Source: Escherichia coli
GTDB lineage: Bacteria > Pseudomonadota > Gammaproteobacteria > Enterobacterales > Enterobacteriaceae
NCBI RefSeq assembly: GCF_041248615.1
Contig: NZ_CP158426.1
DNA: 64,000 nucleotides
Direction: 5' to 3' (one strand)
Both the position numbers and the translations under genes were made by a program. Position 1 is the stretch's first letter. Each line of letters opens with the position of its first letter. The notes beneath the pieces were generated by a model that saw only the letters and a list, made by a program, of their open reading frames with translations, made no database searches and was not told the DNA's origin. Of this stretch, positions 7,370 to 18,132 are shown piece after piece.

Positions 7370-7522
7370 ATGCTGACAAAATATGCCCTTGTGGCAATCA
7401 TCGTACTGTGTTGTACAGTACTGGGATTCACGCTGATGGTAGGCGACTCGTTGTGTGAGTTGAGTATCAGAGAACGTGGTATGGAGTTTAAGGCAGTTCT
7501 CGCTTACGAATCGAAGAAGTAG
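7370..7522 (+). CDS. hokX: Hok/Gef-family small membrane toxin (type I toxin-antitoxin)
   Basis: 50-aa [53 protein letters not shown]: hydrophobic helix plus conserved C-terminal Cys/Glu pattern typical of Hok; GGAGG RBS; below the 60-aa cutoff of the ORF track. Confidence 0.7.
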
Positions 7523-7716: not shown

Positions 7717-10416
7717 ATGCGTAAATATCCTTTAAGTTTACTGAAGGATAAAAATATTGTGACTTTTTTTGATTTCTGGGGAAAAACCCGACGCGGCGAG
7801 AAAGACGGGGGCGACGACTATCACCTTCTTTGCTGGCATTCGCTGGATGTAGCCGCGATGGGCTATTTAATGGTTAAAAGCAATTGCTTCGGACTGGCTG
7901 ACTATTTTCGTCAATTAGAGATTTCTGACAAGGAACAGGCGGCTCAATTTTTCGCCTGGTTGTTGTGCTGGCACGATACTGGTAAATTTGCCCGCTCATT
8001 TCAGCAACTTTACCTGCACCCGAAACTCAGGGTTCCGGAAGGTGCTAGAAAAAATTACGAAAAAATCTCTCATTCAACGCTGGGCTACTGGTTGTGGCAT
8101 CATTATTTAAGTGAATGTCAGGAGTTACTTCCTTCCTCTTCACTCTCTCCCCGCAAACTTACACGTGTAATAGCGATGTGGATGCCCATAACTACCGGGC
8201 ATCATGGTCGCCCGCCTGACCGTATTGATGAACTGGATAATTTTCTGCCTGAAGACAAAGCTGCCGCGCGAGATTTTCTTCTTGAAATCAAACCACTGTT
8301 TCCGCTCATAGAGATCCCCGCATTCTGGGATGATGATGAGGGCATTGAACTTATAAAACACCTTTCCTGGTATATCTCTGCAACCGTCGTGCTCGCAGAC
8401 TGGACGGGTTCGTCAACGCGATTTTTTCCACGCGTCGCACACCCAATGGATATTAAAGGTTACTGGCAGAAAACTTTAGTTCAGGCTCAAAACGCCTTAA
8501 CCGTCTTTCCTCTAAAAGCAAAAGTCGCGCCTTTCACCGGAATTAATACGCTGTTTCCTTTTATTGAGAATCCGACACCGTTACAGCAAAAGGTGCTGGA
8601 TCTGGATATCAGCCAGCCAGGGCCACAGTTATTTATTCTGGAAGATGTGACTGGCGCAGGTAAAACGGAAGCGGCGCTTATCCTGGCGCACAGGTTGATG
8701 GCTGCGGGTAAAGCGCAGAGTTTGTTTTTTGGCCTGCCAACAATGGCAACGGCCAATGCCATGTACGATCGACTGGTCAAAACCTGGCTTGCTTTCTATT
8801 CGCCAGAGTCCCGCCCCAGCCTGGTGCTGGCACACAGTGCCCGAACATTAATGGACCGCTTTAATGAATCACTCTGGTCCGGTGATTTAGTCGGGTCAGA
8901 AGAACCGGATGAACAAACGTTCAGTCAGGGATGTGCGGCCTGGTTTGCCGACAGTAACAAGAAGGCGCTACTGGCTGAAATTGGCGTCGGCACGCTGGAT
9001 CAGGCGATGATGGCGGTGATGCCGTTCAAACATAATAATGTGCGGCTTCTGGGACTGAGTAACAAAATCCTGCTGGCTGATGAGATCCATGCCTGTGACG
9101 CTTACATGTCATGCATTCTTGAAGGGCTGATCGAGCGGCAGGCGCGTGGCGGAAACAGCGTCATTTTGCTTTCTGCCACGTTATCTCAACAGCAGTGCGA
9201 CAAACTCGTTGCTGCCTTTGCGCGTGGTACAGAGGGCCAGCAAGAAGCTCCGTTCCTGGAAAAGGATGATTACCCCTGGCTGACGCACGTTACGAAATCC
9301 GATGTGCATTCACACCGGGTAGCGACGCGCAAAGACGTTGAGCGTAGCGTGAGCGTGGGTTGGCTTCATAGCGAACAAGAATGTATTGCGCGTATCGAAT
9401 CGGCAGTAAGTCAGGGGAAATGCATCGCCTGGATCCGGAATTCTGTCGATGACGCTATTAAGGTTTATCGTCAGTTGCTTGCCCGCGGCGTCATTCCTGC
9501 TTCCAGCCTTTCTCTTTTTCATAGCCGCTTTGCTTTTAGCGATCGCCAGCGAATTGAAACGGAAACGCTGGCACGCTTCGGTAAAAGTTGTAGTTTACAG
9601 AGATCATCACAAGTCATTGTTTGTACACAAGTAATTGAACAAAGTGTGGATATTGACCTGGACGAAATGATCTCCGACCTGGCCCCTGTTGATTTGCTGA
9701 TCCAGCGAGCGGGGCGATTACAGCGGCATATCCGCGATATTAATGGTCAGTTAAAGCGTGACGGAAAAGACGAGCGTTCTCCTCCTGAATTGCTGATTCT
9801 GGCCCCCGTCTGGGACGACTCTCCGGGTGATGAATGGTTTGGCAGAGCCATGCGTAACAGTGCATATGTCTACCCCGATCATGGGCGAATCTGGCTGACG
9901 CAGCGTGTGCTGCGTCAGCAAGGCGCTATTCAGATGCCACACTCAGCCCGGCTTCTGATTGAATCAGTCTACGGTGAGGACGTGGTAATGGCGGAAGGGT
10001 TTGCCCGCAGCGAGCAGGAGCAAGTGGGCAAATATTACTGCGATCGCGCAATGGCTAAAAAGTTTGTCCTGAACTTCAAGCCTGGCTATGCCGCCAATAT
10101 CAACGATTACCTTCCGGAAAAGCTGTCGACACGTCTGGCGGAGGAGTCTGTTTCCCTGTGGCTGGCTACCTGTATTGCCAGTGTGGTGAAGCCTTATGCC
10201 AACGGTGCTCACGCATGGGAAATGAGCGTTGTCAGAGTGCGTCGAAGCTGGTGGAAAAAACATCGGGATGAGTTTTCTTTACTGGAAGGGGAAGCGTTCA
10301 GGCAGTGGTGCATTGAACAGCGGAAAGATCCGGAGATGGCAAACGTGATTTTAGTTACCGATGACGAAAGTTGCGGGTATTCGGCTATGGAAGGATTGAC
10401 TGGCAAGGTTGGTTGA
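7717..10416 (+). CDS. cas3: Cas3 HD-nuclease/helicase, type I-E
   Basis: 899 aa; HD region near N-terminus (LCWHDTGKF), helicase Walker A (TGAGKTEAAL) and DEIH box (LLADEIHACD); position between cysH and cse1; N-terminus unlike K-12 YgcB as I recall it. Confidence 0.9.
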   Translation: MRKYPLSLLKDKNIVTFFDFWGKTRRGEKDGGDDYHLLCWHSLDVAAMGYLMVKSNCFGLADYFRQLEISDKEQAAQFFAWLLCWHDTGKFARSFQQLYLHPKLRVPEGARKNYEKISHSTLGYWLWHHYLSECQELLPSSSLSPRKLTRVIAMWMPITTGHHGRPPDRIDELDNFLPEDKAAARDFLLEIKPLFPLIEIPAFWDDDEGIELIKHLSWYISATVVLADWTGSSTRFFPRVAHPMDIKGYWQKTLVQAQNALTVFPLKAKVAPFTGINTLFPFIENPTPLQQKVLDLDISQPGPQLFILEDVTGAGKTEAALILAHRLMAAGKAQSLFFGLPTMATANAMYDRLVKTWLAFYSPESRPSLVLAHSARTLMDRFNESLWSGDLVGSEEPDEQTFSQGCAAWFADSNKKALLAEIGVGTLDQAMMAVMPFKHNNVRLLGLSNKILLADEIHACDAYMSCILEGLIERQARGGNSVILLSATLSQQQCDKLVAAFARGTEGQQEAPFLEKDDYPWLTHVTKSDVHSHRVATRKDVERSVSVGWLHSEQECIARIESAVSQGKCIAWIRNSVDDAIKVYRQLLARGVIPASSLSLFHSRFAFSDRQRIETETLARFGKSCSLQRSSQVIVCTQVIEQSVDIDLDEMISDLAPVDLLIQRAGRLQRHIRDINGQLKRDGKDERSPPELLILAPVWDDSPGDEWFGRAMRNSAYVYPDHGRIWLTQRVLRQQGAIQMPHSARLLIESVYGEDVVMAEGFARSEQEQVGKYYCDRAMAKKFVLNFKPGYAANINDYLPEKLSTRLAEESVSLWLATCIASVVKPYANGAHAWEMSVVRVRRSWWKKHRDEFSLLEGEAFRQWCIEQRKDPEMANVILVTDDESCGYSAMEGLTGKVG

Positions 10417-10513
10417 GATGCCTGCGACAGGGCTCTCTGAATAGTTGATACACCGAAAAGGATGGAATGATGGACAACCGACCTAGGATGGTCTTTTTTA
10501 CGAGAGGATGCGT

Positions 10514-12076
10514 ATGAACTCGTTTTCACTTCTGACAACCCCGTGGTTGCCCGTTCGTTATAAAGACGGAACGACAGGCAAACTGGCGCCTGTCGATCTG
10601 GCGGATGAAAATGTTGTCGATATTGCTGCGCCACGGGCAGATCTCCAGGGAGCGGCATGGCAGTTTTTGCTGGGGCTACTACAAACCAGCTTTGCGCCAA
10701 AAGATCATCGTCGTTGGGATGATATCTGGGAAGACGGACTGGAATCTGAAAAGCTACGGGAAGCATTGCTGTCCTTAGAACACGCTTTCCAGTTTGGGCC
10801 AGATTCCCCTTCATTTATGCAGGATTTCGAGGCGCTCACAGGAGATAAAGTTCAGGTCGCTTCGCTACTGCCTGAGATTCCCGGCGCTCAAACAACGAAG
10901 TTTAATAAAGACCACTTTATCAAGCGTGGTGTAACGGAATACCTGTGCCCACATTGTTCTGCGTTAGCTCTGTTCTCCCTACAGTTAAATGCGCCGTCAG
11001 GTGGTAAAGGCTACCGCACCGGTTTACGCGGCGGTGGGCCGATGACCACTCTGATTGAATTACAGGAATATCAGGGCAATCAACAAACGCCCTTGTGGCG
11101 CAAACTGTGGCTCAATGTGATGCCGCAGGACGAAGCCGACTTACCGCTACCCAAAAAATTTGACGATCTGGTTTTCCCCTGGCTTGGCCCGACGCGTACC
11201 AGCGAACTGGCCGGTGCGGTGGTAACCGATGATCAGGTTAATAAACTCCAGGCGTACTGGGGAATGCCGCGGCGTATTCGTATTGATTTTAATACCACGA
11301 CAGTCGGCAACTGCGATATTTGCGGCGAGCAGAACGACGCGCTCCTGAGCCTGATGACGACCAAAAATTACGGCGCGAATTATGCCATGTGGCAGCATCC
11401 CTTAACGCCTTACCGTGTACCCCTTAAAGAGGGCGGCGAGTTTTACTCGGTCAAACCACAACCAGGCGGTTTAATCTGGCGCGACTGGTTAGGCCTTATC
11501 GAAACGGGTAAATCAGAAAACAATACGGAACTTCCCGCGCTGGTGGTGAAACTCTTTAATGCCAGCAGTCTCAAGCAGGCAAAAGTGGGCCTGTGGGGAT
11601 TTGGTTATGATTTTGACAACATGAAAGCGCGCTGTTGGTACGAACACCATTTTCCGCTGCTGCTCGATAAAAAAGAAGGCCAGATACCGAAGCTGCGGCT
11701 GGCTGCGCAAACGGCTTCACGGATTCTGAGTCTGTTACGGAGTGCATTGAAAGAAGCGTGGTTCTCCGATCCAAAAGGTGCACGGGGTGATTTCAGTTTT
11801 GTGGATATCGACTTCTGGAACAAAACTCAGCATCGCTTCCTGAGGTTAGTGCGCCACATTGAAGAAGGTCAGGATGCGGATGAATTACTCAGCAAATGGC
11901 AAAAGGAAATTTGGTTATTCGCGCGTCAGGATTTTGACGAGCGTGTCTTCACCAATCCATATGAGCCCGTTGATTTGAAACGCGTCATGACCGCGCGCAA
12001 GAAATATTTTACAACATCGGCGGAGAAGCAAAATGCTAAAGCCGCCAGGGAGAAAAAGCAGGAGGCTGCTGAATGA
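10514..12076 (+). CDS. casA: Cascade large subunit Cse1 (CasA/Cas8e)
   Basis: About 520 aa ORF first in the Cascade operon; ORF track starts at 10508 but the second ATG (10514) has better GAGAGG spacing. Confidence 0.8.
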   Translation: MNSFSLLTTPWLPVRYKDGTTGKLAPVDLADENVVDIAAPRADLQGAAWQFLLGLLQTSFAPKDHRRWDDIWEDGLESEKLREALLSLEHAFQFGPDSPSFMQDFEALTGDKVQVASLLPEIPGAQTTKFNKDHFIKRGVTEYLCPHCSALALFSLQLNAPSGGKGYRTGLRGGGPMTTLIELQEYQGNQQTPLWRKLWLNVMPQDEADLPLPKKFDDLVFPWLGPTRTSELAGAVVTDDQVNKLQAYWGMPRRIRIDFNTTTVGNCDICGEQNDALLSLMTTKNYGANYAMWQHPLTPYRVPLKEGGEFYSVKPQPGGLIWRDWLGLIETGKSENNTELPALVVKLFNASSLKQAKVGLWGFGYDFDNMKARCWYEHHFPLLLDKKEGQIPKLRLAAQTASRILSLLRSALKEAWFSDPKGARGDFSFVDIDFWNKTQHRFLRLVRHIEEGQDADELLSKWQKEIWLFARQDFDERVFTNPYEPVDLKRVMTARKKYFTTSAEKQNAKAAREKKQEAAE

Positions 12077-12609
12077 GTATTGTAAAAGAGGAGCACAAAG
12101 CCACGCTGCGTAAATGGCACGAAGAGTTGCAGGAAAAACGCGGCAATCGTGCCAGTCTGCGGCGTAGCACAACGGTTAATGATGTTTGTCTGTCAGAAGG
12201 GTTTCGTTCTCTGCTGATGCAGACCCACACTTTGTGGAAAATTGAAGCACAAGAGTGGCGTTTTACCGCACTGGCGCTGGTCGCCGCAGTTAGCGCCAAT
12301 GTTAAAGCTATTGATGAACGGCAGCCTTTTGCCGCGCAGCTGGCGGCGGTAATGTCGGAGGGGCGTTTTACTCGCCTGTCGGCAGTAAAAACGCCTGATG
12401 ATTTACTGCGTCAGTTACGTCGCGCGGTCAAATTATTAAATGGTTCCGTCAATCTTATCTCTTTGGCAGAAGATATTTTCCGCTGGTGCCAGGAGAGCGA
12501 CGACCTGCTCAATCATCACCGCCGCCAGCAGCGGCCAACAGAATTTATCCGTATCCGCTGGGCGCTGGAATATTACCAGGCTGGCGACGCCGATAACGAA
12601 CAAAATTAA
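12073..12609 (+). CDS. casB: Cascade small subunit Cse2 (CasB)
   Basis: 178 aa; overlaps casA stop by 4 nt; position and size fit Cse2. Confidence 0.8.
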   Translation: MSIVKEEHKATLRKWHEELQEKRGNRASLRRSTTVNDVCLSEGFRSLLMQTHTLWKIEAQEWRFTALALVAAVSANVKAIDERQPFAAQLAAVMSEGRFTRLSAVKTPDDLLRQLRRAVKLLNGSVNLISLAEDIFRWCQESDDLLNHHRRQQRPTEFIRIRWALEYYQAGDADNEQN

Positions 12610-12623
12610 TAAAGGACTATCTC

Positions 12624-13679
12624 ATGACGACATTTATTCAGCTTCATTTGTTAACCGCTTACCCTGCTGCCAACCTTAACCGTGATGACACCGGTGCGCC
12701 AAAAACTGTGGTACTGGGTGGAGCAACGCGTCTGCGCGTTTCCTCACAAAGTCTGAAACGTGCGTGGCGCACTTCTGCACTTTTTGAACAGGCACTGGCG
12801 GGCCATATTGGTATTCGCAGTGGGCGTATTGCGCGTGAGGCGGCAACTATCCTGATTGAGAAAGGCATCGAAGAGAAAAAAGCCATCGAATGGGCGGCAA
12901 AAATTGCGGATTATCTTGGGAAAGCTAAAAACGACAAAAAACCAAAAGATCCGCTCACTAACGCCGAAACTGAACAGCTAGTCCATATCAGCCCGGCAGA
13001 ATTTGACGCCGTAAAAGCGCTGGCCCATCAACTGGCCGAAGAAAAGCGCGCGCCAAAAGAGGAAGATCTCGCTTTGTTACGTAAAGATCGCATGGCGGTA
13101 GATATCGCTATGTTTGGTCGTATGCTGGCGAATAAACCCGAATTTAATGTTGAAGCCGCCTGCCAGGTCGCGCATGCATTTGGTGTCAGTGAAACGATTG
13201 TCGAAGATGATTTTTTCACCGCCGTTGATGATTTGCGCCAGGCTTCTGAAGATGCCGGTGCCGGGCATCTTGGTGAAACCGGATTCGGTTCTGCGCTGTT
13301 CTACACCTATATCTGCATCGATAAAGATCTGCTGGTCGAAAACCTCGGCGGTGACGAAGCGTTAGCTAATCAGACCTTGCGCGCCTTTACGGAAGCCGCA
13401 CTTAAAGTCTCCCCAACCGGCAAACAGAACAGCTTTGCCAGCCGTGCCTACGCCTCCTGGGCGCTGGCAGAAAAAGGCACTGAACAACCACGCTCTCTGG
13501 CGGCGGCTTTCTATGAACCCATTAATGGCACCCGGCAGTTAGATGTGGCGGTGCAGCGTATTACAACGCTTCGCGAAAATATGAATACGGTCTATGAACA
13601 GAAGACCGAATGCGCAAGCTTTGACGTGATGAACAAACAGGGAAGCATGAAGGACGTGCTGGACTTTATCTGCGCGTAA
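12624..13679 (+). CDS. casC: Cascade backbone subunit Cas7e (CasC)
   Basis: 351 aa; N-terminus MTTFIQLHLLTAYPAANLNRDDTGAPK resembles the Cas7e N-terminus. Confidence 0.85.
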   Translation: MTTFIQLHLLTAYPAANLNRDDTGAPKTVVLGGATRLRVSSQSLKRAWRTSALFEQALAGHIGIRSGRIAREAATILIEKGIEEKKAIEWAAKIADYLGKAKNDKKPKDPLTNAETEQLVHISPAEFDAVKALAHQLAEEKRAPKEEDLALLRKDRMAVDIAMFGRMLANKPEFNVEAACQVAHAFGVSETIVEDDFFTAVDDLRQASEDAGAGHLGETGFGSALFYTYICIDKDLLVENLGGDEALANQTLRAFTEAALKVSPTGKQNSFASRAYASWALAEKGTEQPRSLAAAFYEPINGTRQLDVAVQRITTLRENMNTVYEQKTECASFDVMNKQGSMKDVLDFICA

Positions 13680-13689
13680 GGGGCGGCTA

Positions 13690-14436
13690 ATGAGCCAATA
13701 TTTGATTTTTCAGCTTCATGGGCCAATGGCATCCTGGGGCGTCGATGCCCCCGGCGAAGTGCGTCATACCCATGAACTGCCTTCGCGCTCAGCATTGCTG
13801 GGGCTGCTGGCTGCCGGGGTAGGGATTCGGCGTGATGATACCGAACGATTAAACGCGTTTAACCGCCACTATTCACTGGTGGTTTGCGCCAGCCGTAACC
13901 CGCGCTGGGCACGGGATTATCACACGGTCCAGATGCCAAAAGAGGTGCGTAAAGCGCGTTATTTCAGCCGTCGCGAAGAGTTGAGCGCCCCTGATCTTCT
14001 GAGCGCGATTATCTCCCGGCGCGACTACTACACCGATGCCTGGTGGATGGTGGCGGTGGCAACAACCCCCGATGCGCCTTACAGGCTTGAACAGTTGCAG
14101 GACGGTTTACGTCATCCGGTTTTTCCGCTTTATCTGGGGCGAAAAAGTCATCCGCTGGCGTTACCACTTGCGCCGTTACTGCTCGAAGGCAACGCGTCTG
14201 ATGTCTTACGTAACGCATACCAACAGTATCAGGATAGTTTCCGCGAACTGAAAGTCTCACTCCCGAAACTTCAGGATGAATGCTGGTGGGAAGGGGAACA
14301 CGACGGCCTGGTCGCGAGCAAAATATTACGTCGCCGGGATGTTCCTTTAAATCGTCAGCAGTGGCTGTTTGGGGAACGCACCATCAATCAGGGGCCGTGG
14401 CTCAGCAAGGAGGAACCATGTACCTCTCAAGAATAA
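13690..14436 (+). CDS. casD: Cascade subunit Cas5e (CasD)
   Basis: 248 aa; N-terminus MSQYLIFQLHGPMASWG parallels K-12 CasD MRSYLILRLAGPMQAWG. Confidence 0.85.
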   Translation: MSQYLIFQLHGPMASWGVDAPGEVRHTHELPSRSALLGLLAAGVGIRRDDTERLNAFNRHYSLVVCASRNPRWARDYHTVQMPKEVRKARYFSRREELSAPDLLSAIISRRDYYTDAWWMVAVATTPDAPYRLEQLQDGLRHPVFPLYLGRKSHPLALPLAPLLLEGNASDVLRNAYQQYQDSFRELKVSLPKLQDECWWEGEHDGLVASKILRRRDVPLNRQQWLFGERTINQGPWLSKEEPCTSQE

Positions 14437-15064
14437 CCTTACATACCGGCCAGCTTTCGCCTGCGCAGTTGCTGCATCTGGTGGATCGCGGTGAATATGT
14501 AATGCATCAGTGGCTGTGGGATCTTTTTCCTGGCGGCAAAGAAAGGCAATTTCTTTATCGTCGGGAAGAACTCCAGGGGGCGTTTCGCTTTTTTGTCCTG
14601 TCGCAGGAACGCCCGGCGGAAAGTGATATTTTCACCATCGAATGCCGACCATTTGCGCCAGAGTTGCGTACCGGACAATCCCTTTGTTTCAACCTGCGGG
14701 CGAATCCAACAATTTGTAAAGCGGGCAAACGCCACGACTTGCTGATGGAGGCGAAACGGCAGGTGAGGGGGCAGGTGGAAGGAAGTGATGTCTGGTTGCA
14801 TCAACAACAGGCGGCGCTGGACTGGCTGGCAGCGCAGGGGGAAAGAAGCGGTTTTACACTACTGGATACCTCGGTCGATGCCTACCGACAACAGCAACTG
14901 CGGCGGGAAAACTCCCGGCAACTGATCCAGTTCAGTAGCGTGGATTATACGGGGATGCTTACGGTCACCGATCCTGGGTTATTTCTGCAACGTCTGAGCC
15001 AGGGGTATGGCAAAAGCCGCGCGTTCGGCTGTGGTCTGATGCTGATCAAACCCGGAGCAGAGGC

Positions 15065-15068
<4 letters not shown>
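14418..15068 (+). CDS. casE: Cas6e (CasE) pre-crRNA endoribonuclease
   Basis: ORF 14280..15068 over-extended; start placed at MYLSRITLHTGQ (14418) with AGGAGG RBS at 14409-14414; 216 aa. Confidence 0.85.
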
Positions 15069-16278
<1,210 letters not shown>

Positions 16279-16374
16279 GTTATCTGTTCTTTAAAAATAA
16301 GGAAATGTTTTAATTTAGTTGGTAGATTGTTGATGCGGAATAAATTTTTTTAAAAACAGTTATGTATGCTTAGT
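16279..16374 (+). promoter_or_regulatory. CRISPR leader
   Basis: AT-rich 96 bp between cas2 stop and first repeat; leader-proximal end of the array. Confidence 0.55.
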
Positions 16375-17074
16375 GTGTTCCCCGCGTCAGCGGGGATAAA
16401 CCGGACTCAGTTTTTCCCTGCTGACCCTCCGAAGGGTGTTCCCCGCGTCAGCGGGGATAAACCGCCATGCCGCGCCAGCTCTGCGAAACAGCCCGCGTGT
16501 TCCCCGCGTCAGCGGGGATAAACCGATCCAAAGATAGTCGCCCCGATTGCCAAATTGGTGTTCCCCGCGTCAGCGGGGATAAACCGACGGTATTGTTCAG
16601 ATCCTGGCTTGCCAACAGGTGTTCCCCGCGTCAGCGGGGATAAACCGGCGGCACTAACGTGATAATCACGATCAATTATGTGTTCCCCGCGTCAGCGGGG
16701 ATAAACCGTGACGGTCCGAAAAAAGTTGGCTGAAGAAATTGTGTTCCCCGCGTCAGCGGGGATAAACCGGTTATTGCGTTTTCCTCACCTGCGGCGAGTC
16801 CGTGTTCCCCGCGTCAGCGGGGATAAACCGCATTCCGTGCAGCGGTCTGAATAATTGCCGCGGTGTTCCCCGCGTCAGCGGGGATAAATCGAGTAACGAC
16901 GAAAAAATACAGGCACGGGCCAGGTGTTCCCCGCGTCAGCGGGGATAAACCGATCCCCGCAGGTATCGCGCAGCTATCGATCGAGTGTTCCCCGCGTCAG
17001 CGGGGATAAACCGGACGCACTGGATGCGATGATGGACATCACTTGGAGTTCCCCGCCCCTGCGGTAGAACTCCC
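16375..17074 (+). CRISPR. type I-E CRISPR array: 12 repeats (29 nt), 11 spacers (all 32 nt), 61-nt period
   Basis: Repeat GTGTTCCCCGCGTCAGCGGGGATAAACCG starting at 16375, 16436, 16497, 16558, 16619, 16680, 16741, 16802, 16863, 16924, 16985; repeat 9 has C->T at 16889; degenerate terminal repeat GAGTTCCCCGCCCCTGCGGTAGAACTCCC at 17046-17074. Confidence 0.97.
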
Positions 17075-17094
17075 AGCTCTCATTTTCAAACCCA

Positions 17095-18132
17095 TCAAGA
17101 CGCCTTCGCCAGCTCCTTCACCAGCGGTAGCATTATCCGCATAACATCACGGCAGCGACGTTCTATTCTTCCAGGAAGTGCCTTATCAATATGTTGTTGA
17201 TTATCCAGTCTTACGTCATGCCAGCTATTTCCCGCAGGGAATGCAGCTGTTTTTGCGCGTTGCTGATAACCATCCTTATTCCCAAGATTCCAATTTGTTG
17301 CTTCTACCGAAAGTACGGCAATACCGGCTTTGTCGAAAACTTCGGCATCATTACAACAGCCAGTACCCTTCGGATAATTTTTATTCAAACCCGGATTGGT
17401 CGTTGCGGCAATTCCATGACTACGCGCAATTGCCAGCGCCCTGTCGCGCGTTAATTTCCTTACTGCTTCAGGGGTTTTTACACCGCTGTTGAAATACAAT
17501 TTATCGCCAACAATTAAGTTATCGAGATTAATCACCAGCAGCGTATTTTTCTTTTCGGTGTCACTCATCCGCTTGAGTAAATTCTCAGCGCCTAATTTCC
17601 CTTCCTCTTCGCCGCTGGTCGCCACAAATCGAATACCATACTCGGTAGGCGTATTTTTCAGGCGTTCTGCCAGTTCCAGCATGACACCTAAACCTGCAGC
17701 GTTATCATCCATTCCTTGTAACGTCAGTCCGCCGAGATTGGCATCGGCGTCAGCATCGCTCAGCGGGGCGTAAGTATCCAGATGCGCCATAATGATGATC
17801 TGCTGCGGCGCTTTGCCTTCATGAGCGGCAATCACCGTACTTCCCGTCACGTTATGCCAGCTCTTGCGATTATCGCGGGCGGTATAAATATACCGACTAT
17901 TAAATGTCCGAATATCACTGCGATAACCCATTTGCTGAAACTGTTGGCGAATATAATCGGCAGATAACATTTCTGCAGGAGTTCCGGTCATGCGTCCCGG
18001 AAAGAAAGTAGCAATATGTCGTGCCTGAGTATTAGCAAAATCGCCAGGTTTAGCTGACGAGGCGTGTACGGGGAGAATAAAGCATACGCCGAGCGCCAGG
18101 GCAGCGGTACGGTGGCGCAATGCGGAAAACAT
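17095..18132 (-). CDS. iap: alkaline phosphatase isozyme conversion aminopeptidase
   Basis: 345 aa with signal peptide and M28-peptidase-like core; convergent with CRISPR array. Confidence 0.85.
   Translation of the reverse strand: MFSALRHRTAALALGVCFILPVHASSAKPGDFANTQARHIATFFPGRMTGTPAEMLSADYIRQQFQQMGYRSDIRTFNSRYIYTARDNRKSWHNVTGSTVIAAHEGKAPQQIIIMAHLDTYAPLSDADADANLGGLTLQGMDDNAAGLGVMLELAERLKNTPTEYGIRFVATSGEEEGKLGAENLLKRMSDTEKKNTLLVINLDNLIVGDKLYFNSGVKTPEAVRKLTRDRALAIARSHGIAATTNPGLNKNYPKGTGCCNDAEVFDKAGIAVLSVEATNWNLGNKDGYQQRAKTAAFPAGNSWHDVRLDNQQHIDKALPGRIERRCRDVMRIMLPLVKELAKAS

Follow-up and report, generated by a model that had tools for sequence, protein, structure and literature searches.

A single-base repeat variant and the species-wide anchor repeat in a type I-E CRISPR-1 array of Escherichia coli

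Introduction

Repeats with point mutations and a degenerate terminal repeat belong to the textbook features of CRISPR arrays, and CRISPR typing schemes already make use of such differences. Since type I-E adaptation takes the leader-proximal repeat as the sole template for new repeats, a mutation in an internal repeat stays in its one unit. Cas6e cleaves at the hairpin's 3' base, behind repeat position 21, and repeat positions 22–29 form the 8-nt 5' handle of the next crRNA.

The closest described system to the array reported here is E. coli CRISPR-1 (or CRISPR2.1) in strains with the non-K-12 cas-E variant, which occupies the same locus (cysH-cas3...cas2-leader-array-iap) and has the same 29-nt repeats, 32-nt spacers, ATG PAMs, and degenerate terminal repeat. 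In these arrays, the terminal repeat was found to be almost always degenerate at its 3' end (Touchon & Rocha 2010, PMC2886076). Subsequently, the degenerate repeat and the conserved spacer at the iap end were together named the “anchor”, which is present in most strains with any cas-E variant (Almendros et al. 2014, PMC3903273).

The other close system is CRISPR-I of K-12 with its engineered 5'-handle mutants, where position −3 is among those mutated and where the 8-nt handle, AUAAACCG, is the same as in the array described here (PMC3764190). In K-12, repeat mutants at positions −1 to −3 were processed normally (Westra et al. 2013, PMC3764190), and the −3 mutants also formed the complex normally, but both phage resistance and interference needed a C at −3 (PMC3764190). 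Binding of the crRNA and targeting of DNA were likewise found to depend on the 5' handle's sequence as well as its length (Beloglazova et al., PMC4288178). On the DNA side, PAMs with a C at −3 or −2 allow neither interference nor priming, and the self signal by which the array is protected is CCG (Xue et al. 2015, PMC4678831).

Here, we describe an array of this kind found in a window of E. coli DNA, by which we mean the whole 64,000-nt stretch that was analysed. We consider it very probable that its peculiarities are explained by a point mutation in an internal repeat, which marks a sub-lineage and alters one 5' handle, and by an anchor that is a fossil shared across the species. All of these features belong to a well-described system and the anchor has been published; therefore, what we report is already known, real but ordinary. 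Its importance is small, with two modest uses, one as a sub-lineage marker and the other as an illustration of repeat templating and of the crRNA handle.

Results and Discussion

The Locus, the cas Operon, and the Leader

The chromosome of E. coli isolate NRZ14408 (NZ_LT599825.1) matched at 100% over the query, and RefSeq annotates on it the order cysH, Hok/Gef, cas3, casA, casB, cas7e, cas5e, cas6e, cas1e, cas2e, CRISPR, and iap, the last on the opposite strand. The list of open reading frames of the window agrees with this order, and the cas genes of the window are intact according to the same annotation. The coordinates of all features are given in Table 1.

Table 1. Features of the CRISPR-1 locus in the window, with their positions, strand, and the basis of each assignment.
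Feature	Position	Strand	Basis
Complete type I-E cas operon (cas3, cse1/casA, cse2/casB, cas7e, cas5e, cas6e, cas1e, cas2e), non-K-12 variant	7717..16278	+	Open reading frames, RefSeq annotation, identity to K-12
A+T-rich leader, from the cas2 stop codon to repeat 1	16279..16374	+	Sequence; related and K-12 leaders
CRISPR-1 (CRISPR2.1) array: 11 well-formed 29-nt repeats, 11 spacers of 32 nt, degenerate terminal repeat	16375..17074	+	Parsing; RefSeq CRISPR annotation
Repeat 9, with T instead of C at repeat position 27 (window 16889) as sole difference from the consensus	16863..16891	+	Array parsing; T in isolate 362, C in 13 other records with spacer 9
Spacer 9, whose crRNA would have the altered handle AUAAAUCG; 32/32 match to a prophage gene with ATG PAM	16892..16923	+	Sequence searches
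Repeat 11, last well-formed repeat, GTGTT...TCAGC type; K-12 equivalent GTGTTCCCCGCATCAGCGGGGATAAACCG	16985..17013	+	Comparison with related arrays and K-12
Species-wide anchor spacer GACGCACTGGATGCGATGATGGACATCACTTG; K-12 version differs at 2 positions	17014..17045	+	Genome survey, comparison with K-12
Degenerate terminal (anchor) repeat GAGTTCCCCGCCCCTGCGGTAGAACTCCC	17046..17074	+	Array parsing, relatives, literature
iap, convergent with the array; stop codon 20 nt from the terminal repeat	17095..18132	-	Open reading frames, RefSeq

The operon differs from that of K-12 in an uneven manner. The interference proteins share only 21% (Cse1), 30% (Cas7), 35% (Cas5), 27% (Cas6e), and 29% (Cas3) identity with their K-12 counterparts, and Cse2 gave no significant match to its own in the protein comparison with K-12, whereas Cas1 and Cas2 are 85% identical. 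Identities of 21–35% for Cascade and Cas3 versus 85% for Cas1 and Cas2 fit the published exchange of modules between two E. coli cas-E variants. The final 100 nt of the leader are the same in 12 of 12 related arrays, and the window leader and the K-12 leader agree in 76 of 105 aligned columns.

Outside the operon, a gene for a toxin of the Hok/Gef family lies at window positions 7370–7522, between cysH and cas3; the sokX small RNA of K-12 is placed at the equivalent position. A scan of window positions 15500–18000 against Rfam at E ≤ 1 returned zero families.

Anatomy of the Array

The repeats start from 16375 to 16985 at an exact period of 61 nt, followed by the twelfth, degenerate copy at 17046–17074, and all 11 spacers are different. 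Ten repeats are exactly GTGTTCCCCGCGTCAGCGGGGATAAACCG, so the statement of the earlier note that eleven repeats share one sequence holds for these ten and fails for repeat 9, which is the variant. In other respects, its description of a type I-E array, with one repeat differing by a single base and a last repeat that is degenerate, was correct in coordinates and sequences. All 11 well-formed repeats start with GTGTT and have the loop GTCA, whereas those of K-12 CRISPR-I combine a GAGTT start with a GCCA loop. A stem is predicted from repeat position 5 to 22, around the 4-nt loop, and is followed in the consensus by the 8-nt handle.

The array adjoins cas1e-cas2e and a full Cascade/cas3 operon, with the A+T-rich leader on the cas2 side. 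The region under study is the leader-distal part of a chromosomal type I-E CRISPR-1 array between cas2 and iap, and we found no structural differences between it and the E. coli CRISPR-1/CRISPR2.1 arrays described before. Its spacer set is matched in full only in its own record and in part in 14 other arrays.

The T of Repeat 9 Is Genuine, Inherited, and Derived

Given that a one-base difference inside a 12-fold repeat may arise from consensus errors or mis-phasing, the T at 16889 might be thought to be a sequencing or assembly error of the source record. The joined sequence of spacer 8, repeat 9, and spacer 9 was therefore used as query against E. coli genome records, and the matched arrays were fetched and parsed. 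The whole unit was found in 12 records, two of them at 100% and 10 with one mismatch, and three further records contain the repeat and spacer 9 with one mismatch. The 100% pair consists of the source record and isolate 362 from Madrid (NZ_OW967178.1). The lone mismatch always falls at repeat position 27, where NRZ14408 and isolate 362 have T and every other record has C. With spacer 9 by itself as the query, a sensitive search gave 15 arrays, 2 with T and 13 with C, these 13 including two pairs of records of the same length and coordinates that are probably the same strains.

The array of isolate 362 has spacers s1, s2, s3, and s5–s10 in common with the window, s1 and s2 being at the leader end, contains the extra spacers s11, s12, and s13–s16, and lacks s4. 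These internal spacer gains and losses relative to the window indicate that isolate 362 is a separate isolate with a related array. Its independent assembly, from another country, has T in the same unit with the same spacers on both sides, and therefore, the T does not stem from a sequencing error; it is derived, since all 13 other records with spacer 9 have C. The identical change is seen in other arrays too, and we regard an error in the source record as extremely improbable, being directly contradicted by isolate 362. The T at 16889 is thus a genuine, inherited, and derived polymorphism of the sub-lineage of NRZ14408 and isolate 362, and the C to T change arose as a point mutation after the repeat had become internal. 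The C to T variant reported in the earlier note is in this way confirmed by a second assembly, and the comparison with related strains that it had proposed was carried out, with the outcome that the variant is not fixed among the relatives, given its presence in 2 of 15 arrays with spacer 9.

Most likely, the mutation would have remained confined to one unit from the moment it occurred, marking from then on the sub-lineage of these two isolates, and the T at 16889 offers a clean marker of the array sub-lineage that they have in common. Private changes of the same kind are present in internal repeats of the relatives, namely A26G in the repeat ahead of spacer s13 (eight arrays), C11T (one array), and T13C (the two older repeats), and the K-12 array itself has three variant repeats at its distal end. 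In the relatives, the two repeats preceding the last good repeat have C13 (GCGCCAGC), as compared with window positions 16924–17013. A block of spacers, from s13 to s16 or s24, is missing from the window, presumably by deletion from repeat to repeat, and the relatives show other internal losses as well as one duplicated spacer (s3, twice in one array).

The Same Change in Other Arrays

The C27T change is also found in units unrelated to that of the window. In E. coli F1140 (NZ_OY754377.1; positions 1601–1629 of the fetched locus), it lies in the last well-formed repeat of an array having only the anchor spacer in common with the window, and, on its sequence context, this looks like an independent occurrence. 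Single T27 copies are present in seven genomes with repeats of the GAGTT type, and a T27 repeat of the GTGTT...GCCAGC type is present in 154 genomes, with a median of 7 copies per genome.

Strain 7/2 (NZ_CP023820.1; positions 2135–2712 of the fetched locus) has T27 (AAATCG) in repeats 1–7 and C27 in repeats 8–10, and its seven-unit block occurs at ≥99% identity in 118 genomes. This pattern is as expected from a mutation of the first repeat followed by its copying at seven acquisitions. Since T27 fills seven leader-proximal repeats in this strain, the base does not block integration, repeat duplication, or spacer acquisition. The private internal change of the window and the same change copied through seven leader-proximal repeats in strain 7/2, placed side by side, illustrate first-repeat templating.

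Processing of Repeat 9 and the Handle of the Spacer-9 crRNA

The earlier note had placed the changed base in a 3' handle and supposed that it could affect Cas6e processing or the handle of the adjacent crRNA. The 5' handle of the downstream crRNA in fact consists of the last 8 nt of the repeat, and repeat position 27 is position −3 of this handle, so that the handle is indeed altered, the crRNA of spacer 9 having AUAAAUCG instead of the usual sequence. An effect on processing, in contrast, is unlikely, given that the predicted fold is −15.1 kcal/mol for both the consensus and repeat 9, that the stem pair probabilities in the context of repeats 8 to 10 are 0.99 vs. 1.0, leaving the hairpin unchanged, and that the K-12 mutants at −1 to −3 were processed normally (PMC3764190). 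By analogy with K-12, Cas6e would still cut normally at the unchanged base of the hairpin and deliver a spacer-9 crRNA with the altered handle, and the U at −3 would probably weaken or abolish interference by this one guide alone.

Normal processing at repeat 9, together with weakened or lost interference by the spacer-9 guide, is the best-supported prediction, although it is drawn from the K-12 Cascade, whose subunits are only 21–35% identical to those of the window. Among the 21 repeat mutants of Westra et al. 2013 (PMC3764190), the changes at −3 that we could confirm are C-3G and C-3A combinations. The natural change in the window thus differs from these engineered K-12 changes in being C to U. 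On the DNA side, the flank of spacer 9 changes from CCG to TCG, with the C at −2 kept; because of this retained C, the array should probably still be protected from self-targeting.

The strain 7/2 arrays bear on the same base. The C27T array type is present in more than 100 sequenced genomes with intact cas genes, and the fact that seven spacers, one of them against the prophage that spacer 9 targets, were gained and kept behind T27 repeats in a widespread lineage suggests that this cas variant may tolerate U at −3. At the least, the 7/2-type arrays suggest that U at −3 is not strongly counter-selected. This pattern sits oddly with the need for C at −3 in the K-12 Cascade, and it is the only mildly new point of the present work. 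That the non-K-12 (I-E1-type) E. coli Cascade may tolerate a U at −3, in a departure from the cytosine requirement of K-12, we put forward only tentatively, and we lean towards doubting it. If it were true, natural repeat polymorphism would map the handle positions needed by each Cascade variant, and the T27 arrays provide a natural test of the need for the −3 handle base in a non-K-12 Cascade.

Spacer 9, Its Target, and the Question of Self-Targeting

Mutated repeats flanking a spacer are a described means of escape from CRISPR autoimmunity. The change in repeat 9 could on these grounds have been selected to disable the crRNA of spacer 9, for example as relief from the targeting of a resident prophage. 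The spacer is in fact a perfect match, with a functional ATG PAM, to a prophage gene annotated as a “phage gateway protein” in STEC384 and STEC379, the match extending to 33 nt with the repeat-derived G, and any base other than C at −3 abolishes interference according to the K-12 data. Nevertheless, a sensitive search at E ≤ 10 found no second copy of spacer 9 in the genome record of either NRZ14408 or isolate 362, and self-targets are equally lacking in the 13 records that have the ancestral C. The change is, moreover, seen again in unrelated units. We thus reject relief from self-targeting as the reason for the change, neither T-carrying genome having a second copy of spacer 9, and consider selection against the spacer-9 crRNA very unlikely overall. 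Transitions, to which a C to T change belongs, are the most frequent class among base substitutions, and this, together with its recurrence in unrelated units and the absence of a self-target, makes neutral drift a sufficient cause of the mutation in repeat 9.

In E. coli type I-E arrays, the spacers come from phage or plasmid protospacers with an AWG PAM that supplies, through its G, the final base of the repeat, and the targets of spacers 9 and 4 are in keeping with this. In strain 7/2, spacer 2 of the array has its match in the DUF3383 gene that adjoins the gateway gene in the same STEC379 prophage. Spacer 4 (window 16587–16618) has a 32/32 match to upfA of P1-family phages and phage-plasmids, where the flank of the protospacer is ATG in RCS47 and ACG in P1 and P7. 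As judged from these flanks, the ACG of P1 and P7 could be a PAM escape variant, a C at −2 having been reported as non-permissive.

The Terminal Repeat and the Anchor Spacer

The terminal repeat agrees with the window consensus at 18 of 29 positions, distributed very unevenly, with 10 matches among the first 11 positions and 8 among the last 18. It had been described in the earlier note as having lost its stem complement; the two pairs at the Cas6e cleavage site are gone indeed, and the other four of the six pairs (CCGC/GCGG) are kept. Of 5426 complete E. coli genomes, 3793 (about 70%) contain the last spacer and the terminal repeat, together with 36 nt of flank, at a coverage of ≥80%. The anchor spacer and the terminal repeat of the window agree, without differences, with the anchor of Almendros et al. 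2014 (PMC3903273).

The GAGTT start of this repeat had also been read as a possible trace of K-12-type ancestry, and this reading does not survive comparison, given that the same anchor is present in those 3793 genomes with any repeat type. With the K-12 consensus, the terminal repeat agrees at 20 of 29 positions, marginally better than the 18 of 29 of the window consensus, through A2 and C13. The terminal repeat of K-12 MG1655 is a 30-nt version, GAGTTCCCCCGCCTCTGCGGTAGAACTCCC, and the K-12 repeat just before the terminal unit, GTGTTCCCCGCATCAGCGGGGATAAACCG, is of the GTGTT...TCAGC type, near the window type and unlike the GAGTT...GCCAGC of the other K-12 repeats. In seven further genomes, sampled across the identity range for terminal-repeat haplotypes, the terminal repeat starts with GAGTT or GAATT, whether the active repeats are GTGTT or GAGTT. 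The terminal unit is the same in 12 of 12 relatives of the window, and GAGTT terminal repeats close GTGTT arrays there and in three of the sampled genomes. Since the GAGTT start is species-wide and the adjacent repeat of K-12 is itself of the GTGTT type, these data give no evidence of descent from a K-12-type array. Moreover, the repeats of the window lack the GAGTT start and GCCA loop of K-12, neither its Cascade nor its leader is K-12-like, and a GAGTT terminal repeat is not exclusive to K-12.

The terminal repeat is thus a record of the ancestry of the arrays of the whole species and not of a K-12-type ancestry, in line with the published account (PMC3903273), and the ancestral repeat may have resembled the A2 and C13 state. 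The terminal repeat and the spacer preceding it are the oldest unit of the array, common to about 70% of E. coli genomes. We infer that this anchor unit would never be the copying template and would be too diverged to recombine with other repeats, remaining as a fossil at the iap end.

The terminal repeat could instead be kept for a hairpin of its own, serving as an RNA end or terminator-like structure for the pre-crRNA or the iap transcript, which would explain the A at position 2. For its RNA, folding predicts an extended hairpin of −12.6 kcal/mol (GAGUUC/GAACUC plus CCGC/GCGG), with z = −5.0 vs. shuffled sequences, and the 30-nt K-12 terminal repeat has the same predicted fold at −14.1 kcal/mol; the conservation of the unit in about 70% of genomes could be taken in the same sense. 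However, the haplotypes vary across strains between GAGTT and GAATT, between GAACTC and GAACAC, and between 29 and 30 nt, and the combinations GAATT...GAACTC, GAGTT...GAACAC, and GAATT...GAACAC lose one or two of the outer pairs, which no second change restores, weakening the fold to between −8.8 and −5.3 kcal/mol. In addition, a terminator and promoter scan of window positions 16200–17400 returned no terminator-like site at the terminal repeat, and there is no U-tract 3' of the stem on either strand. The conservation, for its part, is explained by recent common ancestry (PMC3903273). Given the uncompensated pair breaks and the empty U-tract and terminator searches, selection for the hairpin is unlikely, and we downgraded it, on account of those pair-breaking variants, to a highly improbable cause of the persistence of this repeat. 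The fossil anchor is the reading that we prefer.

A scan of genome contigs with TGCGGTAGAACWCCCARCTC in search of an outgroup returned none from other Escherichia species, and its only hit was an E. coli-like contig in a metagenome-assembled genome labelled Bacillota. This 4.5-kb contig (JAEWTL010000035.1, “MAG: Bacillota bacterium”) contains a CRISPR-1 array of the E. coli type along with the anchor unit and the 3' end of iap, and is almost certainly mis-binned E. coli DNA.
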